DNA of 64,000 bases from Laetmonice hystrix (Eukaryota), in the NCBI GenBank assembly GCA_965235115.1, contig OZ249436.1, positions 32,242,001 through 32,306,000 on the forward strand, written 5' to 3'. A program made the translations under genes and the position numbers. Positions 19,239 through 60,600 of the stretch are shown piece after piece. The notes beneath the pieces were generated by a model, which did no database searches, was not told the DNA's origin, and was given only the letters and a program-made list of their open reading frames with translations. Position 1 is the stretch's first letter. Each line of letters begins with the position of its first letter.

Positions 19239-19741
19239 TATAATACATTCTCAGAGGAAAGGTCTGCCCCGCTAACACTTACACTGGACAATTGTATCGG
19301 GAACACCAGGCCTGCAAATATAATACATTCTCAGAGGAAAGGTCTGCCCCGCTAACACTTACACTGGACAATTGTATCGGGAACACCGGGCCTGCAAATA
19401 TAATACATTCTCAGAGGAAAGGTCTGCCCCGCTAACACCTACACTGGACAATTGTATCGGGAACACCAGGCCTGCAAATATAATACATTCTCAGAGGAAA
19501 GGTCTGCCCCGCTAACACTTACACTGGACAATTGTATCGGGAACACCAGGCCTGCAAATATAATACATTCTCAGAGGAAAGGTCTGCCCCGCTAACACTT
19601 ACACTGGACAATTGTATCGGGAACACCAGGCCTGCAAATATAATACATTCTCAGAGGAAAGGTCTGCCCCGCTAACACCTACACTCGACCCGCTAACACC
19701 TACACTGGACAATTGTATCGGGAACACCGGGCCTGCAAATA
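19239..19741. repeat. 80-bp minisatellite, ~6 near-identical copies
   Basis: GGTCTGCCCC recurs at 19261, 19341, 19421, 19501, 19581 and 19661; the last copy has a short internal duplication of CCCGCTAACACCTACACT. Confidence 0.95.
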
Positions 19742-21140
19742 TTAACTACTGTCTCAGTGCGGCCGCCGGGGCTGCTGCTGATGGTCATCGAGAGACTCGG
19801 GCGACTTAAGGTGAATTCCCACAACCCCACTCACTTCGGTCATGGCTAATGTTTGGATACAAGGGATTTCTCGGCACGTGTCATGAGGTCGGAGGGGCAG
19901 GGACTGCATGCTTTTCTATGGAAATGACTGTGTGGTTGACGGCCTTCATTAATTTGTGTTATCTTTTCATGAAAGCCATTATTAGGGGACTTGACATGCC
20001 GAAAATTATTCTCATCAAGGCAGCGTCGGTGCCATAATCCTAAAAGGGGTAATGAGATATTAATTGTGAATCGTATAAAACAGGATTTCCAACGATATTA
20101 AACCATTTTCATACCGTTAGAAGCCGTGTGGTCCTACTCAAAATATTTTAATCATTTTCCTGCAATTTGGCCGAATTCAACTGAAGTCACAAAAACTATA
20201 TTTTCGTTTACTAATGTGCAATATCGAGCAACTGCTAGGATATAACAGGACAGCGATAGTGACATACATGCACAATCTTCGCGATCACACGCGGAGAAAA
20301 TAAGGTGTTAAAGAGTCAACTCTGAGCACTAGTTTAATCGGTAAACCATCATTCCCGTGAATAGTACTCTTTTTGTAAATGTAGACTGACGGGTTAACAA
20401 CAGTTTTTTAAAGATCATCCCATCGAAGCCCCATATAGCCTTCAAAGGATCCAAATGAGCAGGTCAAACAGACTGCACATACACGTCTTTTCCCAGAACG
20501 ACGACAATAAAAATGCACGATTTGCATTCCAGACATTACATTAATCAAAAGAGAACAGCCATTGTGCCCCACCGTCCCTCGCAGAAGTTGGTCAATGCAT
20601 CTTTGAGAACCAGCTGCCCACCGTTATTGATATTTTCTATGGGCCCATTTATTACATTGCCGCAGAAGAATAGTATTTAGTCACACATTGTATGATTTTC
20701 CACTACGCAATAAAAGCCTGAAGGTAAAAAGGAGGGATTGCAATCTAATGAGAACAGAAGAACATTATTCAAGAGACAGTAGTTTTCTACTACAATGTAT
20801 TAAAGCTGTTTTCACCTAATACAATGTATTAGTTAAAGTAATGGCAGATTTTCTATTACATGTAGTGGAAGCCGTAAGGCGTCACGCAACACATGTCTGG
20901 CTTACTGGAATGCAACCCTCTGCTTTACTTAAAACGTAGACTGGACGTCATAACCGGCCGTGCCTGGATCAACTTTCTATGGCCTAGTGATAGCGTAATT
21001 TTTCCGCCCTTTTATGTAATGTAGTAATGTATTGTACGAGGCTAATGCGAGTTGTGATGCTACCGCGGAAATGTGGCAGTTAACAGGAAAAGACCAGTCA
21101 AAAAGCACATTTGGACAGCAAGGCCTCTATATACACTCAC

Positions 21141-21278: not shown

Positions 21279-22241
21279 GGCTAATCTATTGCATGCCAGG
21301 GCTAGGCTAGACTAGACTAAAGTAGGCCTAAAGGCAGCCGAGGCGCGTGGTAAAATCAACGGGGGTCAGTCCCACAGTCACAGTCACAACTAAAACAGGT
21401 CTGTGCTGACACAGGAGCCTGACATTGCCAGCACCCGCCCGCGGTCGAAGCCACTGTTAGGGCCCGGCCCAGTGGCCCTGCAAGCCCCGTCAACATCACC
21501 TCCGAGCGGGACGAATTGAATGCCGGCGGCCGAAACCCATGGCTGGAGCTTGCCCAGATCCGTGTCCACCCTGATATATCCCCTGACATCGGTAGGCTTA
21601 ATTCCTAGCCATTCCTCATCACTATGATCGATGGTTTTTGTCGATGTTCTAACAAATTTTGCTTATATAAATAAGCTGTCAACGTTCGCTCAACGCAACA
21701 GGTGCGTCAGTTTTTCGTTACTCCCAAACTGGAGAGCAGTGGTTGGAGCATGCGCAATGTGAGATTAGCCCAAGGAGCAGACAGCTAATGGCCGCCATCA
21801 CCAGCGGAGCAGGTTCTAAGCAGGCTCCGGCACTAAAGTGCTTATATCTTAACTATTTGAGCACCAATTGTGTTCAATTTTTTTTAAAATTGCTTAGAAT
21901 ATCACGGGCTGTGTGCCTTGCCTGTACACACTGGCGGTGGTCGTTTCTTTTAAACAGCATTAAATAGGTACCTGTCAACAAAAACAAAAACAAGAAAAAT
22001 GTATGTTATGTAGTAGTATTTATTGCCTTTTGCTTCAATATAGCTTGCCCTTGCCACCTATTGATAAGAGTAGGGCGTGGTCCCCATGAGCGGGTTTCTG
22101 TAGTATCATCTCATTATCATCAAGGGACAGAAAAAAGTGAAAAGGGACTTTTCCCATCCTGAAGATGACCACCGGTTGCCGAGACGTAAAGCCGCTCATC
22201 CACCACAAGCCACCAGCAAGCCTGCCAAAACCTAACAAATT

Positions 22242-23589
22242 CTGTCCTATCTATACCCCCACACCCCATCACTGCTGTCCTATCTATACCTACACACCCC
22301 CATAACTGCTGCCCTATCTATACCCATACACCCCCATCACTGCTGTCCTATTTATACCCCCACACCCCCATCACTGCTGTCCTATCTATACCCCCACACC
22401 CCCATCACTGCTGTCCTATCTATACCGCAACACCCCCATCACTGCTGTCCTATCTATACCCCCACACCCACATCACTGCCGCCCTATCTATACCCCCACA
22501 CCCCCATCATTGCTGTCCTATCTATACCCCACACCCCCATCACTGCCGTCCTATCTATACCCCCACACCCACATCACTGCTGTCCTATCTATACCCCCAC
22601 ACCCCCATCACTGCCGTCCTATCTATACCCCCACACCCCCATCACTGCTGTCCTATCTATACCCCCACACCCCCATCACTGCTGTCCTATCTATACCCCC
22701 ACACCCCCATCACTGCTGTCCTATCTATACCCCCACACCCACATCACTGCTGTCCTATCTATACCCCCACACCCCACCACTGCTGTCCTATCTATACCCC
22801 CACACCCCCATCACTGCTGTCCTATCTATACCCCCACACCCCCATCACTGCTGTCCTATCTATACCTACACACACCCCTCACTGCTGTCCTATCTATACC
22901 CCCACACCCCCATCACTGCTGTCCTATCTATACCCCCACACCCCCATCACTGCTGTCCTATCTATACCCCCACACCCCCATCACTGCTGTCCTATCTATA
23001 CCATCACACCCACATCCCTGCTGTCCTATCTATACCCCCACACCCCCATCACTGCTGTCCTATCTATACCCCCACACCCCCATCACTGCTGTCCTATCTA
23101 TACCACCACACCCACATCCCTGCTGTCCTATCTATACCCCCACACCCCCATCACTGCTGTCCTATCTATACCCCCACACCCCCATCACTGCTGTCCTATC
23201 TATACCTACACACACCCCTCACTGCTGTCCTATCTATACCCCCACACCCCCATCACTGCTGTCCTATCTATACCCCCACACCCCCATCACTGCTGTCCTA
23301 TCTATACCCCCACACCCCCATCACTGCTGTCCTATCTATACCCCCACACCCACATCACTGCTGTCCTATCTATACCCCCACACCCCATCACTGCTGTCCT
23401 ATCTATACCCCCACACCCCCATCACTGCTGTCCTATCTATACCCCCACACCCCCATCACTGCTGTCCTATCTATACCTACACACACCCCTCACTGCTGTC
23501 CTATCTATACCCCCACACCCCCATCACTGCTGTCCTATCTATACCCCCACACCCCCATCACTGCTGTCCTATCTATACCCCCACACCCA
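22242..23589. repeat. 34-bp minisatellite, ~40 copies
   Basis: Consensus TCACTGCTGTCCTATCTATACCCCCACACCCCCA; it produces the spurious 362-aa ORF 22510..23598. Confidence 0.95.
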
Positions 23590-24766
23590 TATAATTAATT
23601 TCCCGACCCATACGACATGGTCGCACCTTCTTTTTGTAAAAGCAGCGTCCCTATAATTAGTCCCTGGATCTAACAAAGGGTGACATGCTACTATAAATGT
23701 TTTACCACGATAGATTCACCTTGCCACAGTGAGTAGGAAGTTTGCCCTGTTGTCCTGCGGTATTTCATACGCCAGGGGCTGACTCTCCCATCTCACCCGA
23801 CTGCTTTGATCGGTACAAGTTGGCAGCTCGCGACCCATGGGCTCAGCTGGTACCGGCTACGGTCTACACTTTCGACTCCCTCTCAACGGAACAGTACAGG
23901 TACAGTACAGATAGAGTAGACCAGACGGGGCACATCTCTGGATTACTAGTAACCCTGGATTATACGTAATCCCAAATAAATAGTAGGCCTATAATCCAAG
24001 CTTCCGACTTGTCTGTGTTTTTGTCGTATAGTTTATCTGAGAGATCACATTTCGCTTCCAAAAATCACACTGAAAGCTTTCCGATATCTTTCGAGAGTTC
24101 TCTCTCAGCCCGGCTCTGAAGACAAGTCAGGGTAGATCGGATCAGTGGCTACTGAATTTCAATCGGGTTTAGTGTAATCCTGCTACCGAGACGGAACCAG
24201 TCTGAACCACAGGAAGGCAGACGTACAGACACCACAGCTCACAATTACCAACAAACTGAGCTGTAAATATATAATTATCTAACACCGCTTACATCTCCAA
24301 CAAATAACGGGTAATTACCCCACTGTGCGGAACGTGGAATTATAATTCTTCGCGCACTTATCGCCAAAAGAATTAAACCCATTAGTCAAACGGTACCGAT
24401 ATTCACATGCTGTAGAGCATTTCAGTAAACATTCAGCTAATGGGAAAAAGGATTATTACCATCCTCAGTAACTATAGCAACACCGATATGTGTCTTTGTG
24501 CTGTCATAACATCGTCCCCTGGAAAAAAAAACTAAAACGTGTGGCTGCAATCCAGCCAAAATAACACTAACTGTTGTGTTATCGCTGTTATGAACGATAA
24601 ACGTTATTGATGAGCGTCAAGCGATAAAGGCTCCGCTCCAGTTTCAATGTTAAAGCATCATATATGTGAACGCCCGCTTCGTATCACAATATTAGCTGGT
24701 GAGCTGTGCCTCTTGGTTTCATGTTAAAAGTTAAAGGGAATATCGCCTTGCCGTGACGTCACTGTC

Positions 24767-28554: not shown

Positions 28555-28970
28555 GCCAGGTTCATACTTGTGACGCCTACCTACGCCGCCTGACCACCGC
28601 GTGCAGTCGCCTACCGTCGGCGACTTTAATCACTGAGGTCGTCTGAGGACCTCCCGGCGTCGATGTATGAACACTCCAACGACGTCGTCGCTGACCTTAC
28701 CTCAGCCTCTTGGAATCTTGCTGGGGTCAAGGACAAGGGGTCATGATGCTGGATTCCCATTGGCCAGTTTGGCCAGTCGCCCAGCGACTAGTGGCTGAAA
28801 TGAACTCTGGCCATTTCCGAAAAATCAGTAGACTACTGGAAATCTGTCGCTCAGCGATCATTGACGCCAACCAACACCTACTGGTTGCCTACCAGTAGAC
28901 GTACAGTCGGCGTCAAATTCTCAGTCACTGGCGAGTCGGCATAGGTAGGCGTAAAAATTATGAACCGGCC
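28555..28970. mobile_element. TTAA-flanked MITE with PIF/Harbinger-like termini
   Basis: Left GCCAGGTTCATACTTGTGACGCCTACCTACGCCG versus reverse complement of the right end GGCCGGTTCATAATTTTTACGCCTACCTATGCCG; TTAA at 28551-28554 and 28971-28974. Confidence 0.75.
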
Positions 28971-29173
28971 TTAATTCTGCCAGAGAATAAGTTTTTTTTT
29001 CATTACTGGAAATCTGTCGCTCAGCGATCATTGACGCCAACCAACACCTACTGGTTGCCTACCAGTAGACGTACAGTCGGCGTCAAATTCTCAGTCACTG
29101 GCGAGTCGGCATAGGTAGGCGTAAAAATTATGAACCGGCCTTAATTCTGCCAGAGAATAAGTTTTTTTTTCAT
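28834..29173. repeat. Perfect 170-bp tandem duplication
   Basis: 28834-29003 equals 29004-29173 by inspection; includes the MITE right TIR and ~30 bp of flank. Confidence 0.9.
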
Positions 29174-40208: not shown

Positions 40209-43002
40209 CTGCACAAACAAAAGAAATCAACCCATCTTATCAAACGGAAATAGCGACATCAGAATGACACTGAAAAAAAGCAGAATAGTTTTATTAAGTC
40301 CTATGGAGGCCGCGCCTGAATTTAACACATTTGTAGGGGTTGTTTTCAGCGCCTGTGGAGCAAACTTCTGTGCATTCAGGCATCAACCGGAATATCCAGT
40401 TACCATGGGCTTCTCGTGCGGCAAATAATTAAAACTCCAGTCAGTCCTGTGACAAATGTGCGAAAACAATCAAGTCGCCCGGACGTTGTTGCATGTTACG
40501 ACCCACCACGTCTGTGGCGTCCCTTTCCATCAAGCTGCATGTTTAGGTTTCCGTTTGCTGTGGTCTAACTTGGTCTGTCGGGACGTAAAGTGTAACTACG
40601 AGATGGATTGGAGGCGAGTCATCCAATCCAGTCCTTTTACACTTACAATTAAATCCAACCGCTTCACTTGCTGTAACACTCTGAGGCTACATGAAGTTGA
40701 AGTACACTGAGGCTGGGTTTTAATCCATTCTGTATTTTCCCCTACAGGATTCGACAGGTGAGGTGGTCTCAACCAGGAAAGAACAAGACGCCCGTATCAT
40801 TTTTCTTTGTTACAGTGGAGGCTAAAGACGAATTTGAAATGAGAGCTTTCGTGATACGTTGCCTTTTCAATGTGTGTCACAATAAACGGAAGACTGGAAG
40901 GGACTAAAAGTACGAGATTCGCATATGAAATCATAGCCTACTTTATGAATCCCTCATCTGGATCAAATTTCCTATTACGGAATAAAGAGGTCGTTTTAAA
41001 TGAGACACAATATTATAATAAACATTGCTATCGCATTACAGACTAATACAGTGATTTCTTCAAAGTCAGGTTTGATATTCAAGTCATTTGTTTGCGTTGG
41101 AAGATATCTCTCAGGATACTCTCCCCTGATACCTGACGTCGTGAAATTGCTTTTCTGGACTTTTAATGGCTGGGTTGAAATCGTTACTTTCTATTGGAGG
41201 GACGGGTGTGCGGTCTGAGGGCCTGAAGCTTGAATTTCAAACAGATCTGATTAATGGCCCATGCTGTTGACACAAAGAATGCATGCTGCGAGAAAATTTT
41301 AAGTCTCTGGCTCTATCGTGGAATAAAACCTGTCAATTACCGGAAAGTTTTGCCGTTTGAATAGTTACAGGGTGAGGCTGGAACGAGCGCTGACTCCCTA
41401 TACTTGCGTTACTGGCACACATAACTTATAATAAGAGAATTCCTTTCCTGCTAACATTGCCTTTTTTTCTTTTAATAGTTAATCGTTTGTCTCAACCTGA
41501 CTGCTTCCTCGGATAAGGCCTAAAAGTACATCCCGTACATTCAAAACATCTTCAATTTCGCGTCCTTGGCACATTATAACTGAGGCGTGCCCGGGTTTAG
41601 ATGACAATAAACCGTTTGGAGAATTGGCGACAAGCGACAAGAATCACGAAACCGCGGGTGCCTGCCAGATCTGCATTGGCACACTCGCTTTTTGTCAAAA
41701 AAATCAAAAAGTGACAAACTCTGCCGAAAGCATCGGATCTTTCAAACAAATTATTTACAGACTAACCTTTAGATCTTCCGAAACAGCATTAAAAATACTT
41801 TTACAACCTGAAGGTTTTAAATCATGGCTTGACGGACAAAATAGAGTTTTCCTCATCCCTACATAATCTATCTACTAATGTGAACCAAAATCGATCTAAA
41901 ATTATTCTGGCGTAGATCTTCGACATCTAATATTGTCATTAATTCTCCTCCTGAATAAAGTTGAAATAAATTTTGACTGAATGGCCAGTAACAATTTCAT
42001 CGAAGTAAATGTGCATTACGCGATTCCGTAGATAGACATTAATGAGAATGCTGAAACGATCTCGCAACAGCTCTAATTTCTCCGGAAAACCGTAAACCAC
42101 CTTTCAAATTACTTCGGAAGTCAGCCAGCGTCTGTTTAATGGACGCATATAATCCCACCACCCGGCCCTTGGAACGCCAATCATATTGTTTCGTCAGGTT
42201 AAAACTTTTTGCTTGTCAAGCAGAAAATCTCCCGTGCCGACCAACTTGTCTACAAAAAACCTTACTTCGGATTGTTTTTAACGCTTCTCCAAGTACAGTG
42301 CATAGAGCGAGACAGACGTATGACTTCGGCGGGAGAAGCTGGTGAAATTTACAAAAAGGAAACGGATTTGCTTGTCAGAAAGGGCTTCTATATCCTCTCG
42401 CTCGCTAGTACTTGCGACTGCCAAACTCGTTCAGACCGGTCTTAGAAAATGTGTTTACTCAGCAGAACAGGCCTTACACGGGCAGTAGGATATATTTCTC
42501 TTTAGCTTGTATTTTTACTAGCGAGAACACTTACCGTGAAATGTGACCTAGCTCCGTTCAGGCTGGCCTTCTCGGAAAATTATTTAGATTAACTAATACT
42601 TGAACTGATGAGAAACGGTGTAGTCTTATTTTATTAGCATTGACCACCTGTGGTTAAAAAAAGAAACTAAAAGATGTTTTTAACAACTGGTTTTCTCGGT
42701 CACAGAATATAACGCCCAGACTGCAGACCAAGTTATTTTTTAAAGCCAGCCTGACTAACACAAAACTGACGCCTACTGTACCGATATCCTGGAAGTGAAG
42801 CTTCTTGCAGGATTTGCGACAGGAAAAGCAGGTGGGATTCTTTTCACTCGTTACAGTTTGTTAAAGCTTCGACAAGAAACGAAAGTGGCTTAAATTTGGT
42901 ATTTGCAATAAGAGGAAACAGCAGGGGAGGTTCATGTCTTAGCTCCCTGAGAAACCACCGACTTTTTATTCACCCAGATTCCTTCAGCTGGTGTCGTTTT
43001 TA

Positions 43003-44168
43003 ATATGCATTCAGAGGTAAGTGTGTGTGTGTGGGGGGGGGGGGGGGGGCACCTCGTCAAATATGCAATCAGAGGTAAGTGTGGGGCACCTCGTCCAATA
43101 TGCAATCAGAGGTAAGTGTGGGGCACCTCGTCCAATATGCAATCAGAGGTAAGTGTGGGGCACCTCGCCCAATATGCAATCAGAGGTAAGTGTGGGGCAC
43201 CTCGTCAAATATGCAATCAGAGGTAAGTGTGGGGCACCTCGTCAAACATGCAATCAGAGAAGTGTGGGGCACCTCGTCAAAATGCAATCAGAGGTAAGTG
43301 TGGGACACCGTGTCAAACATGCAATCAGAGGTAAGTGTGGGGCACCTCGTCAAATATGCAATCAGAGGTAAGTGTGGGGCACAGTGTCAAACATGCAATC
43401 AGAGGTAAGTGTGGGGCACTGCATCAAATATGCAATCAGAGGTAAGTGTGGGGCACAGTGTCAAACATGCAATCAGAGGTAAGTGTGGGGCACAGTGTCA
43501 AACATGCAATCAGAGGTAAGTGTGGGGCACTGCATCAAATATGCAATCAGAGGTAAGTGTGGGGCACAGTGTCAAACATGCAATCAGAGGTAAGTGTGGG
43601 GCACAGTGTCAAACATGCAATCAGAGGTAAGTGTGGGGCACCTCGTCAAATATGCAATCAGAGGTAAGTGTGGGGCACCTCGTCAAATATGCAATCAGAG
43701 GTAAGTGTGGGGCACAGTGTCAAACATGCAATCAGAGGTAAGTGTGGGGCACTGCATCAAATATGCAATCAGAGGTAAGTGTGGGGCACAGTGTCAAACA
43801 TGCAATCAGAGGTAAGTGTGGGGCACAGTGTCAAACATGCAATCAGAGGTAAGTGTGGGGCACCTCGTCAAATATGCAATCAGAGGTAAGTGTGGGGCAC
43901 CTCGTCAAATATGCAATCAGAGGTAAGTGTGGGGCACCTCGTCAAATATGCAACCAGAGGCAAGTGTGGGGCACCTCGTCAAATATGCAATCAGAGGTAA
44001 GTGTGGGGCACTGCATCAAATATGCAATCAGAGCTAAGTGTGGGGCACAGTGTCAAACATGCAATCAGAGGTAAGTGTGGGGCACCTCGTCAAATATGCA
44101 ATCAGAGGTAAGTGTGGGGCACCTCGTCAAACATGCAACCAGAGGCAAGTGTGGGGCACCTCGTCAAA
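43003..44168. repeat. 37-bp minisatellite, ~31 copies with interspersed variants
   Basis: Consensus ATATGCAATCAGAGGTAAGTGTGGGGCACCTCGTCAA (starts at 43061, 43098, ...); variants ...CACAGTGTCAAAC and ...CACTGCATCAAAT. Confidence 0.95.
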
Positions 44169-45218
44169 TTTATGATTTCACGCGAAATCATTCAAAAGCT
44201 TACTACTGGTATTTTGACAGACAACCTAATGATACTTGTGGTAACCTATCCTGCAATCTGTCCAAATGTACCGTATCACTAACGTCAAGATCTCTCCAGT
44301 CACACCCTCATTCAGATTGTAATAAATCATCTAACAAAACTGTTTAAACAAAGGCTGAAAATGGAACTATTGTTGGGAACTAATTATAGTCGTGATGCAA
44401 CACAGAATTCTACTTCACTGATAGAACGACTATGATTTCTGAACGTACATTATTGAGAATTAATGGAACCTCGAACAGTGTTATATTCTCTCTCTTGTCC
44501 ACACTGAGCTCTAACGGGAATGGGGAACTCGCTCTTAACTACCTCCATTCAAAACTTAACAAGAGAGAACAATGTTGTTTGATGGTGATAAATCGTAGGG
44601 TGCCACGGTGGGGCAGTAGCTATTACAAACTGTATCGGGTCCTTCACTGCGGGAAAGTATGGAAGGAGATACCTGGCGGATAAATACGGCACGACACCGA
44701 AGGTGGAGTGCCGTATTCATGCACCAGGCATCGAGTTCCATACTTTTCCGCAGTGAAGGAGCCGAATCACATGCTTCTTATTATATGCGCTTGGATTATT
44801 TCTAATTTGAGGAAAAGAGCCAGCAGTAAACAAGAATTAACAACAAATGAGGGTTTATCCGCGGGGCCACGGGATAGGGTGGTTTGTGGAACCCCCCCCC
44901 CCTCCCCCAACCCCCAACCCCAACCCCCATTTATTCTGGAACAGTCGCGCGTAATAATATTACATGTTCCGGTGCTTCCATAGGACCTCATAGTTAACGT
45001 CGCTTCACCCCATGACTACAATCAAATCAGTCCGTATGGAACACGCATTCCATACAGACCACCGTATGGCAAAATGGCACTGGTAGATAGAATGCGCATA
45101 TAATAAAAAACCTAAGTATGATTCCATCAATGCGTTTTATACTCGTCCAGGTTTAAAGGTACATTCTAAGTATCTTCGAAAATAAAACACTTGCCTGTCA
45201 CCGATAGCAACCCATTGA

Positions 45219-46211
45219 CATATATATGTCACGGACGAGATTGGAATCCAGCCCGATTCCGAACTGGGCCGGCCCAGATCGGAATTCCAATCTAGGCCGG
45301 CCCAAAATGGGATTCCGATCTCGGCCGGCCCAGTTCGGAATCGGGCCGGCCGAGATTGGAATTCCATTTTAGGCCGGCCTGTAATGGAATCGACATAGGA
45401 TTCCATTCTGGGCCGGCCCAGATCAGAATTCTGATTCGGGCCGGCCAAGATGGGAATCTTCTAAAGACCTGGCCCAGATTGGAATTCTGATCTGGGCCGG
45501 CCCATGAACAACACCAGTTTTCAGACTCACACCAGCTTACTGCGCTTTGAAGGGGGCTTCAAAGGGAACCCTACACTTTCGGCTGTTTAGAGCCTGGGAA
45601 CTTAGATATAGTAAACATACATTTTGGTAGGTATGAAGGAATCCAGAGGTATAGGTCATATAATTCCGAATATTAGGCCTATCACAGTCCTAAACTGGTG
45701 TCACTATACCTTTAACTTCTAAAAGTGTATTTTTAAACTAAAACTCTGCCGAGATCAGAAAAACGTCCATTCTGTCGCTCGAGGATTCCTATGTGATTAA
45801 AGTGGATATACTGACTTTATAATTCCAGATGGATTCTGCCAGATGGATTCTGATCTGGGCCAGCAGGTATCCAATCTGGGCCCGCCCAGATCAGAATTCC
45901 AATCTGGGCCAGGTCTTTAGAGGATTCCCATCTTGGCCGGCCAGAATCAGAATTCTGATCTGGGCCGGCCCAGAATGGAATCCTATGTCGATTCCATTCC
46001 AGGCCGGCCTAGAATGGAATTCCAATCTCGGCCGGCCCGATTCCGAACTGGGCCGGCCTAGTTGGGAATCCCATTCTAGGCCGGCCTGGAATAGAATTCC
46101 AATCTCGGCCGGCCCGATTCCGAACTGGGCCGGCCGAGATCGGAATCCCATTCTGGGCCGGCCCAGTTCGGAATCGGGCCGGATTCCAATCTCGTCCGTG
46201 ACATATATATG
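45219..46211. mobile_element. Foldback element with ~290/360-bp modular inverted arms
   Basis: Ends CATATATATGTCACGGACGAGATTGGAATCC and its exact reverse complement; arms ~45219-45505 and ~45850-46211 are made of GGCCGGCC-centred palindromes around a unique spacer. Confidence 0.85.
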
Positions 46212-47997: not shown

Positions 47998-48843
47998 TTG
48001 AACGTTCGGGCTAACCCTTCTATCGCAACCACAACCAATTAAGTAAAAAATAAAATAAAATAAAAACAACATGAAGCCACGGGAGCGACAGACTTTCTCC
48101 ACTCGTTCACATTATTTCCTGCATCTATTCAGACTAAAGTCTGAAGTCAAGCCGCTGCACCATATGGCCAAACCGCTGAGATTTTTAAAACACAAAGCCA
48201 GACTAAAAACAGTGAACAAATGAAATCGGTACGAACCCTAAAATAACCCCAGCACATAAAAATGACTTCAAGTTAAAAGGTTCATAAATAAAAAATGTTA
48301 AATCCTCTGACACATCGCTTCGTTCGCTAAAAGCCCTGACGGTGGGGACCCTTTACTTTGGCCATCATGGCACTTAACGTCCTGCTGTCTTTCTGAGACT
48401 TGACATTACGCATAGCTCTGCAGTAAATCCGTGCCTACGGATTCCTTCAGTGCACAGGGTAAAAGGGTCCGCTCTCTCCCTTGCTCCGTGAGGTAAGTAC
48501 CTAGGAGGTTACGACATGGTCAGTGACAAATATTCTTTTACCGGGATGCAAGCAATAGCTCGCCGGCCTGGAGCGAGCTGCACGATGTTCCCTTCGTTAA
48601 AATTCCCATTGATGTTCTGTTCGTTAAATTTAGCACGTGAACCCCGATACTCATTCAAAGATTTAACGAAGAGAAGGTCATGCTACTGGACCTGTGGTAG
48701 TACGACGACCCGACCCAGTCTACAAGAATACACAAATCCCTGTCTATAGAGTATAAATCATACATTTAAAAAAAATAATAAAACGTTACGCAAACTCTAC
48801 CCCCCCCCCCCCCCAGCGCCCACTTCCTTCCTTTCCGACTTAC

Positions 48844-48915
48844 CTTGAGATTGGCCAGTCCTTTCAGACCTGACAAATCTGTCAATCGGTTGTAGGACAG
48901 GTCGACCTCCTGAAG
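48844..48915 (-). CDS. LRR-protein gene, exon b
   Basis: TCTGCAG acceptor and GTAAGT donor; 72 bp, phase 0-0; LQEVDLSYNRLTDLSGLKGLANLK, a canonical SDS22-type LRR. Confidence 0.9.
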
Positions 48916-50051
48916 CTGCAGACAACCAGAATCATTTCAGGACATTGTAACAAACAGAAAATAAAACATATTACGGCATGGATAATGCCTCTTTACAAGT
49001 TCAAGTGTAGCTCCCCGTACGTCTTAATGTTGCTGGTGTAACCTAAATGGGCGTTAGGCCTACAAACTCACGTAGTACATAGTCATATCAACTTGTCATT
49101 TTTTTAGGGTGGGGGGTGGGGTGGGGGGGTGGGGGGTGGCTGACAAGGGAGCATGACTTTATGGGACTCTGCGAGGTGTTCAAGGGATCAGAACACTGGG
49201 GGAGGAACACTGAACATAATACCATTCGGAGAAACTGCGAAGCGGTGTTTTCACAGCAAGCAACGAGAACGGTAGGCCTACACGTGTACTGCACAGCGGC
49301 CATTTCGAAATTATGTAACCTTAGGTAATTTCCACGTGACTTGGAAACTCTTCCTGGCCAGCCTCGGGACAGTGGTTCTGCCATTCTGTCGGCAGTCGGG
49401 CCACAAACCTTCACCTTCCCCACCGCCTAGAAGTATTCGAATTGGCGCTTCGGGCCCAGGAAATATAATAAAGAAGTAGGATCTCATGACATAACCTTGC
49501 AATATAATAATTTCCTCATGTCCGCAGTGTCGGAGAGGATATTGTATGCAATTTCTCTTACACCTTTTTGGTAAAATGGAATCGAACTTAAATGAATTTT
49601 ATATAGGGTCTAGTGATAATAAAATAATTTAAGCTTTCCTCTGCCTGAGGCATCAGGGAGAAAACTTGTCCCTTGAGACATATATAAGATGTTTCGTCAC
49701 AGAAGTGGCAATTGTAGAAAATAAAATGTCTACAAAACGGAATAACGAGTGGCGTCCTGTGAAAAGGTAATTACGCGACATTTTTGCACCTCAAAACTTG
49801 TTTAAGGATACACTTTGATTGGTCCTGTGGTTATCTTCTGGTTAAATCTGCTAGCAACTGAAATGAATTTCTGACAACTGCATTACGTATAATCATGGAA
49901 CATGAGGTTTAGAAACCTGACATACAACTGTCTACAACATTCAAATAAAGTGTGTACGACATTCAAGCTATGCAGCCAGGATAGCACAAAGACGCTTCTA
50001 AAATCCGACCCTGAAGTTTTCAATTTGCGCAGCAATATTGATCAAAGTAAT

Positions 50052-50306
50052 CATAACAGTTTCGGAGGAAACTGATTGTTAATAAATACGCGATACTTAC
50101 CTCATAACATATGAGAGACTTACAGTTTCTCGATTCCCAATGGTCAAAAAATTTAATAAAAGTGTTCTAAGTGAAACAAGAATGAGTTCCACCAGAACTC
50201 CTGTCTTTCTAACATATTCGGTGTATGGCTCCCTCTAGCGGAGATCCGCTGGATCGTGCGCCCCCTAGTGTCCATGTGACCTAGTAGTCAGATTTAAATG
50301 ACCACT
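50052..50306 (-). repeat. DIRS 3' ITR (shared core 50094-50306 plus unique extension 50052-50093)
   Basis: The core is the reverse complement of 56182-56395; I saw only one 1-bp indel (GATTTAAATG vs GATTTGAAATG). Confidence 0.92.
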
Positions 50307-50332
50307 AAGCGGGGAGGCGGGAAGGGCCTTTA

Positions 50333-50433
50333 ATGTTATGAGGTAAGTATCGCGTATTTATTAACAATCAGTTTCCTCCGAAACTGTTATGGTTAATTAC
50401 ATACGCTTCTACTTACCTCATAACATATGAGAG
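50333..50433. repeat. DIRS internal complementary region (ICR)
   Basis: 50333-50390 is the reverse complement of the left end (~50052-50110) and 50389-50433 that of the right end (~56372-56415); the two join at ...CTGTTA-TG-GTTAATTAC. Confidence 0.92.
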
Positions 50434-50679
50434 CGAGTGCTAAGCATAGGAGGTGGGAAGACAGAAATATTCACTCCACAGCCATACCCATTGAGGCGTA
50501 GGCCCTTGCACTTGTTTTCACCTGGGAACGTTTATAGAGTTAAATCCTGAAAACTGCTATACGTGTGTAGGGAAGGTAATACCTTCTCCTTGTGAGGGAA
50601 ACCAAGGGCCGGAAGACTGAACAGATAACATCTGCCCCCCCCCCCTTCTTTTTGTCCCACGCTCTCCATCATGCAGTGA

Positions 50680-51600
50680 CGTGGACAAACAACGGCCTGG
50701 GCCACTAAAAGGGCGTCCTCCTGACCACCAAGTTCACGCAATAGAACTGTAAAGGTGGTGTCTAATAGCCAAAAGGCAGCCTCGAGGAATTCGGCGAAGG
50801 TTACTCCATTAATAGGAGCCCAGGACGCAGAAATCGCCCGCACCTCAAGAACCTTAACACGATGAAACTGAAAAGACTTGGGCAAGGCCGCGTCTGCCCG
50901 AGTCAAGGCTAAGCTAAAGCCTTCCACCTAGAAATGTAGCCGGCGTGATGTCGAGGGGTACGCACTCACCAAAAGACACGACACCCCCTCTAACAGGCAG
51001 CTCTACAGGCGCTCCTCATCATCCGGCCTGAGCTCGGAGCTCAGAGCCAGGGTCGGGTTGTTAGCCACAGAGTGTGGTAACAAAGGTCACAATGGAGGAA
51101 CAGGGGCCAAAACGCGCTCCCCCGAAGGCAGAAAATTCCGACCACCTCAGCCCTGAGGTTAATGCTACAGGAACATGGTCTTTCAAGTACAAATTGGTGT
51201 ACGGAAGACATAAGATAAATAAGGGGGGGGACGCAACAATGCGTTCAGTACCACCGACCAACTCCAGTAAGGGGCCTTCCTCGGCTTTACGGGCTCAAGA
51301 AATATCAAGTTGCGTAATAGCGCACTGAGTTCCCGTCAAGAGCTAAAGGAACCTCCGCCTGGTGCTGATGCATTTGCTGCAATCACTGATCTGATTCCTC
51401 GCACGGCGGAGACCGACAACCCCCAAAGAAACATGTCAAGCACACAATCGGCTACTGACAGGGGGCGGTGAGATCAAAGTCATATGTTCCCCTGCCCATT
51501 CAATAAGGAAGGCCCGCTGTCTCGATACGCAGCTTGCGAGGAGGGCCTATGTTTCTCGGCAATGCTCTGGGCCGCTTGTCCCGAGAATCCACGCTTCTCA
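50680..51600 (-). pseudogene. Decayed DIRS tyrosine recombinase
   Basis: Fragments AEKHRPSSQAAY (N-terminal), VALTSGLRWSEFSAF (catalytic Arg box) and VKVLEVRAISASWA...EFLEAAFWLLDTTF...LLVAQAVV (HxxR box with His replaced by Leu); frameshifts and stops between them. Confidence 0.85.
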
Positions 51601-51759
51601 CCTCTGTTCCTGACAAGCAGAGGGGTGTAAATCGAAAATCTTCGGAGCTGAATGCCACTTCCCTCTCTAAAACAACAGATCGGGGTCATAAGGCAGGGAT
51701 CGAGCCCAATCCCGCAACAAATCTGATATCTCTGTGAAACAAGGCCAACCCGGCCCATA

Positions 51760-51970
51760 TTATGACTGGCCCAGACAGGCGCGTTTCGCGGCGCGTTCGA
51801 GACGCGTCGGCCATTTTTATGCACGCCTCGTGATGCACGCGTCCTGTGTGGGTCGCTAATCACGCAGGCGTCAGCCGTTTCTGACGCACGCGTCGACTTT
51901 TTCACGCGCGTGACTGGCCCAGACAGGCGCGTTTCGAGGCGCGTCGCCCATTTTGACGCACGCCTCTTGA

Positions 51971-52001
<31 letters not shown>

Positions 52002-52023
52002 CCCTGTGTGTCCCCGGTTTTAA
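51760..52023. mobile_element. Truncated Harbinger-like MITE nested in the DIRS element
   Basis: One terminus ...CCCCTGTGTGTCCCCGGTTTTAA, a (GCAC)n tract and duplicated GACTGGCCCAGACAGGCGCGTTTCG blocks; interrupts the RNase H remnant; other terminus not found. Confidence 0.55.
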
Positions 52024-52119
52024 ACTTGCCCTGCACATGAAATGACGGTTATCCCCGGTTATCCGGAATAGTAGCAGTGACCGAGTGTCCCTTTGATTTA
52101 ACAGATAGGTCACTGCCAT

Positions 52120-52282
52120 CCCAACTAACACACAACCTTTTCACAACGTTGAATAAAGTTGTAGTTTGGTCACTTCACAACGTTGTGTCTAACGAAACTA
52201 CAACGTTGTGGCAACATAGAAAACCAAACAAATTTACGTAGCGTTATGGGAACGTTGTAGCAACGTAATATTGCTAGCTGGG
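52120..52282. mobile_element. EnSpm/CACTA-like MITE nested in the DIRS RNase H
   Basis: Termini CCCAACTAAC / GCTAGCTGGG, 2-bp TSD AT (52118-52119, 52283-52284), internal CAACGTTG repeats; removing it rejoins the DST-MAVTY RNase H motif. Confidence 0.8.
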
Positions 52283-55179
52283 ATCGTACTGTCGGGGTGG
52301 ATCAGGACTACTGATCGCGTCGGTAGCCAGGCGAAGTGATGAAGAGCCTAGGCAAATTGCCTTTAATTCTAGACCATATATGTATCCGTGCCACACCCCG
52401 CTCCAACTATTTCGGAAATAGCTCCCCAACCTCCCCGAGATATCTGTGGAGAAGGGAAACATCCGGGGTTAGATATTCCAAAGTACACCCCTCTGAAAAG
52501 TCTGTGGATCGATCCACCACTAGAGGAACTGCACCAGAGACCGAGGAAGGAGAACCCTGCACCCGCCGAGGAAATCCCTGCTCGGGCGCCACGCACTCAA
52601 CAACGCAAACTGCATCAGTCACCCATGCAGTTTGCCAAGCGGTCCTGAGTTCAAAAAAGAAAACTCCGATAAACTGCAGACATAGCTTGTCGGAGCAACT
52701 TCCAGGCCTATACACTTCACCAGGTATATCCTCCATCCCAGGGGAGGTAAAACTGAGAGCAACTGGGTGGCTTGAACGGGCCACACCATGTAAGGATGAA
52801 GCTCCATCCCTTCTGACCTGTCCAGCTTCCCAACTGTGTTGCCAGCTAGGTAAACTCGGACCGAACGGCAGACTACCAACTGGAAACATTATGGACTGTC
52901 GTTGGAACACTGAGAAACTCCTAGTGCAAGAAAGTGTCCTCGATGTCTATCGTGACGGCCCCGCCTCTTACCTATAGACACTGAGACATGCCACGTTTCT
53001 CGAAAACCCCTACGGGTTTAAGGAAAATAATTCCCGGGGCGGACTCACTACCGACCCTAAAGTGACGACTGCACCTTTCTCTCGAAGTTTCCTGATCTCT
53101 CCTATTCTTAGCTTAGAACTTAAGGAAACAGAAAGGGAGGGCCCTGCGAGAGTGAGCCGATGAACGGGCCACACCAGGTCTGGCGGGCTCGACAAACTCC
53201 AGACGCAATCACTTCCTGAGAACAGACAGGGTCCAAGGAATCTGGTAATTGATGAAGCAAGCTCACCGCTTGTGTGCGCTTCGTTGTAAGCGAACGCTTA
53301 ATTCCGAACCAAAATGTCCAGATCCAACTCAGGCTTATATCGCGAGACGGCTATGACAAACTGAGGACTTAGAGTCGAACCCCGGCGAAACAAGATAGAG
53401 TAGATAGGAATCAAAATCCAAACTCTATGTTGAGTGACGTATAAGGCCAGGGCCGCCGTAGTCCTATCGCCGAAAGATATAGCCTCCGGCGACTATAACC
53501 AAGGTCGGCCTAGATGGCCGCCGTCGTGACTAGGCGAACACGGTTTGCCTGAGCAAAGAAAGGGCACTTTGGAACTGAAACGGTCGAAGGCTCCTTCAGT
53601 CCAAGAGAAAGGTCCCCTGGGTCCAACCTAGAACCCCCTACCAGGAGGGTCCGAATGCAGAGTACATTCCGCCATAAAAAACGGATTAACGGGGGTTGAT
53701 CTCCCCTAACGTCCGACCGAAGTAGGGTACAAGGGGAAGGGATCCGTGAAAAGATCCATAGTTGGACAAACTGAGCGTAGATCCTCTACACCCCCCGAAA
53801 CTCTGCCCGTAACCGTCTAGATATTGGCAACCAATCCATGCCAAATCGCCACAAATAACAGACCATATAGGACTATATATATATATACATATATATATCC
53901 GGTGTGTTTAACTCAAATTTTTGAGTCACCATGTTTTTCTCTGTCTCTCATTTTAAAAACTGTATCAACATGCAGTTTTCCAGATAGTCTGATCTTTACC
54001 ACCGTTTCCATAGACTACTCACAGCCATAGATGGCGCTACAAGGACTCTACCTCGTGCCATCAAGGTCCCCAAGCCAGTTTAAATAACTTCATGTGTGTC
54101 AGGCGGGGGGACAAAGAGAACAGGAAATTTTAGGATTTTCAAAAAAGCCGATTTAAAGATTTTCAAGGCTTACTTGACTTCAAGGCCCTGCGGAGACCCT
54201 GCAAGCATACAAGAGAGAGGCCGCCTCTAGCCTACTGACTCCCCCGATCCGCGAGGGAGGCGCGATTACGCTGCCTGGCCGACAGAGCACTCCTCGATCG
54301 GTCGCGTAAGCCTAGGCCATAGGCCTATACTGATCGACATCTCTCATGGTCCCAAGATCTAGACCAGACCATGGTGACGACGCTGTCCTATGAAAACCCC
54401 AAAGTCTAGTGCGACGGCCAACTTGACCCGGGCAACGATCCTGAGATCGACGACCCGCGTGAAAGAGACGTTCCTAGGTACAGACGATCGCGAACGCTCC
54501 CGATCTCGGTCTGGATGCCGTCTCGGGGATTAAATAAATATAATAAATATAATATCGCCTGCACGATATCGTCTCAATGGTCTAGATGCGAGAGATATCT
54601 TCCTGGCATGTAGATCTCTAGCCAAGGCATCGATCTCGAACTCGATCTTTATTTCCTGATCTAGTCATTACGGGGAGATCGATCAACAAACAAAATCGTC
54701 TGTGCGATCTTGTCTCTAAATGCACCTAGTGCGAGAGAACTCTTTCCTCGCATGTATCCTAGGCCTAGATCTCTAGCTCTATAGGCACCGATCCTGATCC
54801 TTATCCCGATCCTGATCTGGATTCCGATCCTAACTGGATCTCATCGATCTCGAGCTCGACGGACCTGCCAAATCTTGTGCCTGTCAAGCGGGGAAATCTT
54901 AACCCCAAAATTCGGGAGTTCTCCCGCCTAAGCAGGAGTAACGATCTCGACCTCGAGCCAGGAACGATCTGGAGTAAGGCTCGGTGCCTGATCTTGATCA
55001 GATCGGATCAGATCGGGGGATCGAACCGCAGATCATCAAATGATCGACTGCCCGACATCGTCTCAGTGAGCCTATACGAGAGATCTCAATCCTCGCATGC
55101 CCGAGGCACTGAGGCCCGATGGCACATATTATGACCGATCTCAGGAAGAATCCCCGATCGTCTACGTGCGTCTGCGCGG

Positions 55180-55553
55180 CTCGCCGCGGCTGGCCCGGGT
55201 GGTCTCCTCGAGGAGACCACCGGACGCAGACGAGGGGGAGAACGGTCGCTCGAGCTGTGGCTCGAGGCGAACGCGAGTCTCCCCTCGCGTCAAGAGATCG
55301 ATCCCGAGCCGACTCGCGCGGCTGGCCTCCTCGAGGAGACCACCGGACGCAGACGAGGGGGAGAACGGTCGCTCGAGCTCTGGCTCGAAGCGAACGCGAG
55401 TCTCCCCTCGCGTCAAGAGATCGATCCCGAGCCGACTCGCGCGGCTGGCCTCCTCGAGGAGACCACCGGACGCAGACGAGGGGGAGAACGGTCGCTCGAG
55501 CTCTGGCTCGAGGCGAACGCGAGTCTCCCCTCGCGTCAAGAGATCGATCCCGA
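55180..55553. repeat. 3 x 123-bp GC-rich tandem repeat in the DIRS 5'/gag region
   Basis: TCCTCGAGGAGACCACCGG at 55205, 55328 and 55451; 41-codon unit, open on the element strand (ORF 55162..55608). Confidence 0.92.
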
Positions 55554-56181
55554 GACGCTGAACGTCTGCGTGTGATCGTCTCAACGTCTCAACGGGCTTA
55601 ATTCCCATTCCTCGCGTGGGAAGCCCGAGGCACCGTCCCGAGACATTATTATTTCGACCCAGTGATCGGTGCCTACGCTGTACGCCACCCGCTGTGCGTG
55701 ATTGGGCGTATCAGCGTATCAGACTGGTCAGGTGGGTGCGTAGGTCGAGGATCCATGACCTTACGCTTACCCACCTAGTCCTGCACGGGACTGACCAGCT
55801 GATTGAGACGTGAGCGTGACGTCACACCCTTAGCCCCCCGGCGGGCGGGTGGGTGGGCGGGTGACACGCTTCATTGCCTGGAGCAAGCACAGTGTGCACC
55901 CCGGCTCACTGCTGACCGTTCCGCCTGGTCAGACAAAGCCAACCGAGGAAAACTTGTCGGTCAACATGGCCTCGCTTACCTGGACTAACAGAGGCCGACA
56001 AGGAGTGTACCTGGCCCTTAGAATAACTCAGGGAACATGCTGAATAACTTCTACCACACAAGGAGGTAGTGCGTCTACCTATATTGGTAGACTACAAACA
56101 ACAAATAGACAGGAATGACCAAAGGGAATACAGAACTATAAGGAAAAAACCACGGTACTCACGAAGACGTCCTGCGGTAGC

Positions 56182-56415
56182 AGTGGTCATTTCAAATCTG
56201 ACTACTAGGTCACATGGACACTAGGGGGCGCACGATCCAGCGGATCTCCGCTAGAGGGAGCCATACACCGAATATGTTAGAAAGACAGGAGTTCTGGTGG
56301 AACTCATTCTTGTTTCACTTAGAACACTTTTATTAAATTTTTTGACCATTGGGAATCGAGAAACTGTAAGTCTCTCATATGTTATGAGGTAAGTAGAAGC
56401 GTATGTAATTAACCA
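56182..56415 (-). repeat. DIRS 5' ITR (shared core 56182-56395 plus unique extension 56396-56415)
   Basis: Reverse complement of 50094-50306; the extension GAAGCGTATGTAATTAACCA is matched only by the ICR. Confidence 0.92.
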
Positions 56416-57594
56416 AGAAATTCGTGAAGCCCAGATTTTTTCAAACAAAGGTTAGTGTTCATCACCCTACTGCCGACCTAACTACAGCAGTAAATGGGGG
56501 ACCACTCGTCAATGAAACCTTACATACCTGCGGTGTCCCATTCATTGCTACGTTAGCTAAGTCCGCGATATCCCCCATAACTATCGTCCTATAGGACAAA
56601 GGGCCCCTGTCTGATCCAAACATCGCTCAATGAAGAAAGTCGGGAAAGAACATTAATCCAACCAGGGCGAAATTACCGAGGCTCATTCTGAGGCAGTCAA
56701 TCAGCACGTCAATGAGAAAGTGGAGCCTGATGACAGAGCGGTCGGGCCTGCCAATCCAATCAGGGGCCCAGGGCGCGCACCAAAACTCCTACTTCTAAAT
56801 CTGCTGCCTTCACTCAACAGCTCTCTCTGTCTCTCTCACTGTCTGCGTTTGAGGCTCGGCTAATGTAGTGTAAGTAGAAGTCGTATTGCGGAAAAGCATT
56901 GACTTTTCCATGGATGCATCAAAGTGAATACTGTTATCACAATGAATTGAATGCTATCGTTCAGAATAACAGACCTGAACGCCTAGACAACGGTACAGGT
57001 GAGATCCACATAGAAAACATTTGCGGAGTATTGTATCATAGTTTAAAAGAACAGAGAGAATGTAGGCCTAATGGGGAAAAAGTGAATAGACCAAAAGAAG
57101 AAATACTACTGACAATTTAGCAATAATCCAGTTCTGTGTTGTTCCTGACTCTAGCCCTATTTAATAATCATGTAACCTTCAAATGACGAGCAATATCAAA
57201 AGGAAATATTCGGTTGCGTCCATAGTTTGCTATGATGTGTCCCACTGAAGGCCTGTTTAGATGTTGTGACTTGTCGAATACCATTTGTCACATTCGACAG
57301 AATTGTAACGACATATCGTATGACGTGACCAATCGCGACGTAACAAAGCACTCACGTGACCACCGTTTCAGTTACTGAGAAACCTAGAAGAATTCCAAAT
57401 TTACGTATAACATTCACGAACCAATAGCCATATAATTGAACTTACAATATCAATTGAGAACTGCAATAACTGCTGACACAAAAGTGATTTGAAAGCAGAG
57501 TATGTCTACAATTGGTTTACAAATGTACTACGAGTGATTGGCATATAAAATTCCTTTCACATATTACAAGTTGTACCTCTGCAAATTAACTCAC

Positions 57595-57681
57595 TTTTTT
57601 GCACCTGGAGAGATCTGCTACTGTCCTCAGTCGATTGTTTACAGCCTGCAGCTCCTCGAGGTTGGGAAGACAACTTAATGC
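57595..57681 (-). CDS. LRR-protein gene, exon a (most 5' exon found)
   Basis: CCTTTGCAG acceptor and GTGAGT donor; 87 bp, phase 0-0; ALSCLPNLEELQAVNNRLRTVADLSRCKK. Confidence 0.88.
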
Positions 57682-60600
57682 CTGCAAAGGAACGAGGCGT
57701 TGTAAGCATAATTGGATCGGAAAGTTTGTATGGACTTCTCCAGTTGTCACCTTGTATTTCTAATCAGTGAACCAATTACAGTATCAGTATATGAGAAATG
57801 GCTTCCACAATATGATACCTTTCAGATTTATAGGAAATTATTATCCTATTCTTTCCATATCCATTCAATTTTCTTTCCCTTTCCAATCACATTGTACTGG
57901 CTAAAATACATGCATTCTATTCTACACTTGCCCAGTCGCAGTACTCGGTTTACTTCAATGTGGAGAAAGAAGTTCATGTGTATTGACTGTAGGGTAGCCT
58001 ATATAATTTCCGTTTCCTTGTTCTGAACGTCACCTGCGATATCGTTAATTAATACCATGGAGAGGAGAACTATTACAATTCTAAGTAAATCCTTTATTGG
58101 TTTGAAAGGCAATCTTCAGAAAACTACATAATTATATTCTGAAGCCGAAATAGACGTGCACATTAATGTTGTCTTTACACTAGTGTAGCTTCAGATGACA
58201 TATGTTTTCAAGAGTCGATGAGGCCTAATAATAGCCATCGCCCTAACCTTCATGAATATCATTTTGTAAACAGACCAATCCCACAGGATATCGTGCTTCT
58301 AGTGGCCAATCCATAGGAAAGAGTGTCCCAAGTGTAGTGGGCTTTATGCTTGATGCTTCCAAGACTGACGGCATCGCGAAACGCCAAAGTCACGTGATGG
58401 CGACCCTGGATCACTATGGTTGGCCGATAGGGTCATACCGCGTGTACATTAACACGTAACGTAAATAGTAACGCGTAAAAACACGCGTCTGTGCCCCACC
58501 CCCTTTCTACAAAACTGTGGCTCCGTGCCTGGACAGACTGCAATCAATTTTACCCCCTTGAATCCAGAACCCTTCCACTGCGGGCGGTGGCATACTGGAC
58601 GCAATATTTTGTCAACATGTATGTATTCCTCGTATAATTAGTTGAACTATAAACGTGGTTGGTGTATGCCTAAATACACCAGTATTCCTTGCAACGTCTG
58701 TGAACCAATGCTACGACAATATCAGGAGCTGGAGCTGGGTGGGCACAAGGTGAAAGACATACCAGTACTGGCTTTTAATTCCAGGTGTTAATTCGAGATT
58801 GAAACAGTTAATAAAAAACAGTAGAAAAGATCTCGCAATTATTCAAACAGAAAAAAACCATCGCAACTTACCCAAATATACATATTTATATATTCTAATA
58901 TGTTTCTATGGTCGGCAGGTTTGCAAAGGGAGGGCGGGGTGGGGGGCAAATCAAATCCCAGGAGGCATGGGCCTGCATACAGCAATGCCCACCATCACCT
59001 TGTCACCACCAGCCAGTCTTCCCTAGAGCCTTGGCTTCTGACAAATGCCTGGGAGTGACGATACCGTATTTATCAAGTTAGTACCTGTTTTGCGCAAAAT
59101 TCAAGGGAAAATTTACATATACCGTACTTTCAAAATTGTGATCTTCCTAAAACGACGAACGGTCGCGTATAGCAGGCTAAGGGTGAACGTAAAATCTGGT
59201 GGGAATTGTCTCTGTAGCTCCTCAGATAGGACAGTGGGACACTTTCTCCTTTATACAATATGACCTTTAAAAACTCGTTCAAGGGCACCCACTTTTAATC
59301 AGTACCTTCCTTCGGGTGATATTGAAATCGGTCCAGCGGTTCCAAAGCCAAGAAATGCGGGAGATACGCACAGGCTAACAAAAATGTCACCGACTAGCCC
59401 TATCAGTCGTGACACACACAGAGCTTAAATCACACACGCTACCGGGAACTGGAACAGCTACGGCAAGGTTCCAGGCGTCTTACATGTTACATCTTACATC
59501 AACGCGTCGCTTTACGTCTCTAATAGCTTGACATCAGCAGAGAATAAATAAGGACATTAGTCCTTCCTATTTAATACTTCCAGAAGTCTTCTGAAATCAC
59601 CCTTCAACAACTGCCTTCGATCGGTCCGCAAAACGGAGCAATGTCAGCTCCATTTGCTCATCTTTAAGATGAATTGTAAGAAAGGCGAGTTTGTGAAACC
59701 TTTTGGGGCAGTACCTCTGGCAAAGAGCCGCAACATAAATGACAACAATCACGTTGAGTGCTGACGCAGCCGTGGAAAACCACTAACAACTTTACAGAAG
59801 TGGGCAGAAAAAAGGATTAAGTGAATTCAAATTGATCTCTCACAAATCAATAATTTGTCATTTTTGTATTACAGTTAAAAAGCTCACCAAACATCATTCT
59901 TCAATCAACACATGACGGTATCTTTTTGTCAGTTGGCCGGAAGCGACTTTTTGATCAACCCGTGACTCTTAGAAAAAAAGGCTTCCCCCCGACATTTTCG
60001 TTTTTTGTTTGTTTTTGTTTTGAAGGAAGGGAGACAATGAAATAACGGTACATTACTGGCTTACGTTATAACAGCCTAGAATAATGTATGGAATTACCAT
60101 CACATAACTTAACTGCTTCAACACTTTAACTTTACCCAGAGATATACGAGCTCGACGACAACGAAGTCGGGATCATTTATGAAGCTAAACGAGGATGGTT
60201 GTAGTAGGGAAATCTTTAAGTCAGTAAACTTACTTCGTTATCAATCCATTACTGAATCCACGTAAGAGTTTCAATGTTTACACCAGGAAGTCTATGACCA
60301 CCATATTGGTTCCTATCCATAAAATCATGCGCAGTTGGTACAGGAATTGGAGGAAAGGAAATGACGAGGCGCGGCGGAGGGTATAAATACAAGCAAACGG
60401 TCAAGGTTGAGTCCTCAACATCTGTCGAGACGAAGTGAACGAACGTCCCACCTCCACCCCGACTCCTCCGTCTTCGTCTTTTATGCAGAATATTCATCTA
60501 CGATAATTTAGCTGTATTTTGCGGGGGCTTATGTGCTGGGCAGGGTTAAGGGGAGGGATACTCGGGGTCAGTGTGGTCTGCCTGGGTTTTGGGGGTTAGT

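Follow-up and report, generated by a model that had tools for sequence, protein, structure and literature searches.

Intact ends around dead genes: a multicopy DIRS1-type retroelement family in Laetmonice hystrix, probably mobilised in trans

How does a retroelement keep its ends in order when nothing between them can any longer encode the enzymes that copy it? The question is raised by a 64,000-nucleotide stretch of the Laetmonice hystrix genome (assembly GCA_965235115.1, contig OZ249436.1, positions 32,242,001 to 32,306,000), hereafter the window, whose own numbering we use throughout. On its minus strand lies a DIRS1-type element spanning 50052-56413, which an earlier reading of the letters alone (the original prediction) had taken for a parasite with clean termini and a ruined interior. 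In what follows we examine the termini, the coding remnants, the relatives of the element in sequencing contigs and an allele that lacks it. We conclude that the element very probably belongs to a coding-dead, multicopy DIRS1-type family with intact ends, recently copied through RNA by reverse transcriptase (RT) and tyrosine recombinase (YR) supplied in trans.

The terminal features comprise inverted terminal repeats (ITRs), together with an internal complementary region (ICR):

56182-56413, minus strand: left terminus, starting GTT, with an 18-nt divergent ITR (56396-56413) and the conserved ITR (56182-56395)
50052-50306, minus strand: right terminus, with the conserved ITR (50094-50306), the divergent ITR (50078-50093) and a 26-nt right extension (50052-50077)
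50333-50433, minus strand: ICR, its two halves meeting in an overlap at the circle junction, which reads AAC on the element strand
50049-50053, minus strand: right junction, with a target-derived ATT after a shared TG and no target-site duplication

The conserved ITRs are 213 nt (50094-50306) and 214 nt (56182-56395) long; 202 nt are identical, followed by an extra base at 56193 and a further 11 identical nucleotides, which bears out the earlier description of ~213-bp repeats with a single indel. Divergent ITR parts of 16-18 nt lie outside them, as expected of DIRS1-like elements. The ICR had been said to pair with both outer ends, and it does so without a mismatch, being complementary at 59/59 positions to the element 3' end (50052-50110) and at 44/44 to the 5' end (56372-56415, including two flank bases). 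The window holds four exact copies of a 17-nt core, one in each ITR and one in each ICR half, a count reached in 0 of 100 shuffles. The strong folding of the element 3' end (z = -18) only reflects the ICR match and adds no evidence of its own.

The insertion can be read against an empty allele. Contigs from three sequencing runs (X1, X2 and X3) of one sample were placed on 48000-58500 at a likeness of at least 85%, and the records used here comprise 40 of 242 differences, 12 of 80 indels, 15 of 25 joints, 18 of 543 loose ends and 24 of 5676 contig pieces. In all three runs a contig joins 50051 to 56414, skipping 6362 nt, at the depth of the single-copy right flank (57.3, 55.2 and 42.1), with two letters that fit both sides. 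The insertion polymorphism for which the original prediction had called is thus present as an exact empty site. The ICR encodes a circle junction that reads, on the element strand, ATG-GTT-A, and the empty target reads TTG-ATT-A; since the left junction bears the GTT of the circle and the right junction the ATT of the target, the crossover lay at or before the shared TG and left no duplication.

The element therefore starts and ends with NTT and lacks a target-site duplication, in keeping with the rule for DIRS1-like elements, most of which have NTT at both ends in Table 3 of PMC3266345; first-base mismatches between junctions also occur there, and AcDIRS1 (CTT/CAT) differs at another base. 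By the structural tests of its termini, junctions and domain order, the element belongs to the DIRS1-like superfamily. The empty allele differs from the right flank of the window at 7, 3 and 10 positions in ~1826 nt, fewer than separate the element from its sisters, and we infer a recent insertion from a source copy that was already somewhat diverged from the family majority.

Inside these ends the order RT, RNase H, methyltransferase (MT) and then YR is kept in the form of remnants, with MT represented by its C-terminal tail alone:

52620-53238, minus strand: eroded RT remnant, from the frameshift-tolerant profile alignment
52264-52619, minus strand: remnant of the RT connection and RNase H, interrupted by stops and frameshifts; the profile match ends around column 434 (lowest tblastn E 5e-4)
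51785-52260, no strand: non-homologous filler replacing the rest of RNase H and the MT core (profile columns 435-573)
51640-51782, minus strand: C-terminal tail of the MT/pol open reading frame (ORF), 31.4 bits over columns 574-666 against a shuffled maximum of 20.7
50663-51614, minus strand: broken YR, with several frameshifts and stops and with deletions of 10 and 18 codons

These remnants were aligned, with frameshifts allowed, to a pol profile built from 52 pol proteins out of 120 listed and to a YR profile built from the C-terminal 370 residues of 44 among the 135 YR search matches. A separate pol set was used because the ~960-residue YR-search matches mostly represent a long YR frame and not pol (YxDD in 1 of 44). 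The reference proteins share only 30-40% identity, and small alignment gaps may be natural variation, as the loss of invariant residues would not be.

Pol profile columns 134-434, covering RT and RNase H, align at 52956-52264 with 59.8 bits (at most 18.4 in five shuffles), while the N-terminal part of RT at 53238-53069 gives a marginal match (17.5 bits against 15.7 in shuffles). The DLKDAY-like motif (~52950-52924), LPFG (~52871) and the YLDD site (~52792) still stand in order within 52956-52620, but YLDD, invariant in 52/52 references, reads YMV-W in the window, and six deletions of 7, 9, 10, 10, 10 and 21 codons are found against the profile. The RT catalytic core had been described as apparently deleted; it is indeed dead, but by erosion and not by loss of a block. 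The frameshifting reported for RNase H is confirmed by the same alignment. Over the filler (~480 nt), columns 435-573 score 12.7 bits, under the shuffled maximum of 17.4. It holds an ACGC microsatellite and a ~70-bp duplication, and at 52047-52052 the window has 4 letters where the family majority has 39, which means that the window copy lost part of it.

The YR remnant fares no better. A full HMMER scan matched 135 proteins (best E 2e-16), and domain scans of five of these found RVT_1 in four and an integrase-type domain in four. The profile aligns to the window with 145.6 bits, against 18.1 or less in shuffles. The first Arg survives, the Lys present in 43/44 references is Asn, the His of the HxxR box (44/44 references) is Leu at ~50849 and the catalytic Tyr (44/44) is out of frame, so the earlier description of a frameshifted YR lacking that His was accurate. 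Word-index protein searches with the YR remnant returned no match, and Pfam searches of six whole-element frames and 12 sub-frames gave no credible match, two weak sub-cutoff matches being discarded. With 75-90 stops per frame, the element has no open frame carrying an intact YxDD motif or the YR residues that an autonomous copy would need.

The main damage is shared. Of eleven tabulated interior contigs, ten stand at 16-33x flank depth and the eleventh at 8x (a twelfth deep interior row, X1 record 2, with depth 678 or ~12x flank, is outside the table); the family numbers roughly 15-30 copies, depth being no exact count. Six non-overlapping dominant contigs show 40 differences from the window in 2694 nt (1.5%). 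Contigs at 19-32x flank depth carry the large RT deletions, the stops in YR and the junction at which MT is replaced. Over 52587-53018, where 68 codons are absent against the profile, the contig (depth 1409) falls 3 nt short of the window's length and carries 4 substitutions, too few to rebuild the YxDD motif. In the YR stretch 50910-51222, stops number 4, 7 and 3 in the three frames; the dominant contig that covers 50910-51308 has only 2 substitutions against the window and, outside that stretch, one 2-nt indel (51223). The RNase H/filler junction is crossed without a gap by a contig of depth 1635.

More distant relatives are also found, one 8.4% diverged (net +17 nt) and another ~10% diverged (net -1 nt), and because these contigs are too short to hold the missing codons, the large deletions predate the 8-10% divergence. 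The element is therefore one member of a multicopy non-autonomous family whose members share inactivating lesions. The original prediction had asked for copies with common deletions and frameshifts, and the deep contigs, colinear with the broken RT, the central YR and the MT replacement junction, provide them. It had also named two outcomes that would count against it, a single copy with private lesions and frameshifts arising from assembly error; interior depth and common damage contradict the first, and for the main lesions their presence in deep contigs contradicts the second. As a separate observation, joints at about single-locus depth (51084-53253, 53262-53915, 54623-54788, 54645-55077 and 55100-55648) suggest that some members of the family carry additional internal deletions or are rearranged.

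The ends tell a different story from the interior. At 50207 an A stands in every one of the 13 contig records from the three runs; the window has T there, with the complementary base at the mirror position 56282, and a minority base in both arms is what copying of one ITR from the other predicts. Although the window copy stands 1.5% from the dominant contigs, no substitution separates its ITRs or interrupts its ICR matches; at that divergence the chance of zero substitutions is ~0.05 for the ITRs (205 nt) and ~0.01 when the ICR matches are included (308 nt). As a speculation, the lone indel at the inner end of the ITR would fit an inner part carried by the transcript and not re-copied. Taken with the empty allele and the old shared lesions, the identical ends support the earlier view that the termini were renewed by a recent round long after the ORFs had died.

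The cycle that we propose would begin with transcription of a source copy. Borrowed RT would make cDNA from the element transcript; with the right ITR as template for the left one, and the ICR as template for the outer ends, the termini would stay identical while the interior decays. Borrowed YR would then recombine the circle junction (GTT) into a near-matching site (ATT after the shared TG) without target duplication, and selection would act only on the ends and the ICR. Of this scheme, the anatomy of the ends, the dead catalytic motifs, the depth and common lesions of the family, the empty allele and the geometry of the junctions are observed; that a copy is transcribed and reverse-transcribed, that a partner acts in trans and that the event was an insertion and not an excision are inferred. 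Experiments with Dictyostelium DIRS-1 lend the scheme some footing: according to the portion of PMC7192593 used here, retrotransposition requires the ICR, the template known for the RT route, and the DIRS-1 RT acts in trans on a truncated construct.

Several points weigh against this account. Precise excision would produce an identical empty site. Gene conversion within the element could also mirror a base in both ITRs, and zero ITR substitutions are in themselves weak evidence at P ~0.05. In the same portion of PMC7192593 the full trans cycle of the truncated DIRS-1 was not observed, its marker intron being unspliced. The runs come from one sample and Logan contigs drop rare variants, which makes the depth ratios rough and leaves individual copies unread, and the six dominant contigs cover only 2694 of the 6362 nt. 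Within 50539-50928 the family majority is net 18 nt longer than the window and carries further substitutions, and it may or may not share the loss of the His and Tyr. Several indels of the window are private or of homopolymer length, for example at 51223 and 52660. Finally, no intact partner is present among the 24 of 5676 contig pieces listed. In the claim of a parasite family mobilised in trans, the multicopy nature, common lesions and empty allele are supported, and the trans step is likely.

The alternative that survives best is movement at the DNA level, in which a YR acting in trans excises a circle and reinserts it, or an older copy is precisely excised, with ITR identity due to arm-to-arm gene conversion. 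It draws on the same empty site and on the ability of conversion to put a private base in both ITRs. However, cut-and-paste alone poorly explains the gain of copies, gives no reason why the ICR halves match the outer ends at 103/103 positions while the interior is 1.5% off its sisters, and leaves aside the known role of the ICR, which in the part of PMC7192593 cited serves the RT route as template; we regard it as improbable. Still less probable is segmental or tandem duplication of one dead element without transposition. The contigs do not resolve single copies with their flanks, and only 18 of 543 loose ends are listed, which leaves it some room; against it, depth falls from thousands to 42-57 at the element edge, a single-copy contig spans the empty site precisely, the junction obeys DIRS rules and relatives exist at 1.5%, 8% and 10% divergence. 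Least credible of all is a single copy that inserted while autonomous and decayed in place, or frameshifts that are assembly errors: the private or homopolymer-length indels and the additional family bases at ~52050 and within 50539-50928 speak for it, but the RT deletions, YR stops and MT junction at 19-32x flank depth largely refute it, and 3-10 differences in ~1826 nt of flank are too few for so many lesions to have arisen in place.

We therefore retain recent copying through RNA with RT and YR supplied in trans. Two candidates for a sign of the partner were considered. Depth over the ITRs was rejected as such a sign, since it shows no consistent excess, corresponding to ~35 elements against 26-30 for the interior in X2 and to 14 against 16-19 in X3. 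A 507-nt contig, ~10% diverged, has 5 gap letters and no room for the missing 10 YR codons, and on its length is an unlikely candidate for the autonomous partner. Metagenome scans with the YR peptide and the ITR motif gave no match. A loose end at 52910 (X3) may mark a less eroded relative; it is a single contig and was not used.

A broader proposal, which we offer tentatively and with distinctly less confidence, is that this is a long-lived parasite lineage of ITR/ICR-type DIRS elements, resembling large retrotransposon derivatives (LARDs). Its enzymes would have been lost before the 8-10% subfamily divergence, ~6.4 kb would have been kept as non-coding filler offset coding deletions, and it would still be inserting. 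If this is so, the family would prove, from nature, that ends and ICR alone are enough for gag, RT and YR to carry out the complete DIRS cycle in trans, and the partner might share little beyond the termini. The experimental test in PMC7192593, in the portion consulted, leaves the trans action of DIRS proteins other than RT unanswered; the existence in nature of a polymorphic family with dead genes suggests that the cycle as a whole can run in trans and that the ends and the ICR are its cis requirements. Screens with RT, MT or YR profiles would miss such families, just as Pfam finds nothing credible here.

The remainder of the element and its surroundings can be described briefly:

53070-56181, minus strand: 5' region, where gag would be expected from the DIRS layout, with no credible ORF
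55196-55554, no strand: 123-bp tandem repeat, 2.9 copies, 97% matches

GATC-rich short repeats also occur in this 5' region. Pfam and tblastn over 53240-56180 found no match, in a comparison made without any gag reference sequence.

Elsewhere in the window, a separate repeat left of the element at 49053-49750 reaches a summed depth of 42,775 (bin 49053-49403), falling to ~1,000 in the next bin; unique DNA returns by 49738, beyond this high-depth repeat. At 45219-46211 lies a ~1-kb inverted-repeat element made of short GGCCGGCC-containing units (arms 257 nt, 92%), which is foldback-like or resembles a miniature inverted-repeat transposable element (MITE), and nested inverted repeats at 722-1164 (arms 43 and 47 nt) are also MITE-like. 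There are also minisatellites (34, 37 and 80 bp) and one 170-bp segment duplicated exactly in tandem, at 22162-23650, 42949-44281, 19159-19769 and 28834-29173. On the minus strand at 4279-4479 one of 273 queries, a DIRS pol protein, matches weakly by tblastn (E 0.004), which may reflect another retroelement fragment or chance.

How does the element compare with known systems? In anatomy it closely resembles the animal DIRS1-like elements (SkoDIRS1 and SkoDIRS2 of Saccoglossus, TnDIRS1) as given in the part of PMC3266345 used here: divergent and conserved ITRs with a right extension, a two-part ICR overlapping at a 3-nt junction, NTT ends without target duplication, ~6 kb of length and the order RT-RH (RNase H)-MT-YR-ICR. 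SkoDIRS2 likewise starts GTT and has the junction AAC, and in SkoDIRS1 the divergent part measures 16, the conserved part 202 and the extension 30. Unlike those elements, annotated there with recognisable ORFs, the window element has dead RT, RH, MT and YR, and its RT and central YR damage is common to the family majority. In Xenopus, 36 of 75 Repbase DIRS-like families are degenerate to some extent; the text of PMC9210276 consulted does not describe these as mobilised in trans. No non-autonomous ITR/ICR family is described in the portions searched of a literature that included PMC8498967, PMC5633606, PMC12477816, PMC8969392 and PMC4350176, with most subscription papers, Repbase and supplements outside its scope; the supplements of PMC9210276 and PMC12477816 may list such families.

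Among elements that have lost their enzymes, the natural comparisons come from elsewhere. TOC1 is a split-direct-repeat (PAT-like) element, and TOC3 is its proposed partner. In Chlamydomonas reinhardtii, TOC1 is described as a non-autonomous DIRS retrotransposon whose copy number varies among strains (PMC9940879, in part). The window element differs from it in being of the ITR/ICR type and in retaining recognisable coding ruins. SIRE of Trypanosoma cruzi, a truncated non-coding derivative of VIPER, is proposed to borrow its parent's machinery; unlike the window element, it measures ~0.4 kb and belongs with the split-repeat elements, and the section of PMC6681497 cited leaves its mobility an open question. 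Non-autonomous YR retroelements are already in print in these two accounts (PMC9940879 and PMC6681497, as far as cited). Our finding is a natural case and not a new principle, and its surprise is moderate because the concept is familiar from TOC1 and LARDs. The analogy with LARDs, drawn by the original prediction, holds as to working: like the LARDs and other non-autonomous long terminal repeat (LTR) retrotransposons treated in the relevant part of PMC6696364, the element exceeds 4 kb, has conserved ends around a non-coding interior and would be parasitic on an autonomous partner. Membership fails, since LARDs have direct LTRs and depend on integrase, whereas the repeats of the window element are inverted, and it carries an ICR and YR-type junctions without target duplication. 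By analogy, then, it works like a LARD, but it is not one.

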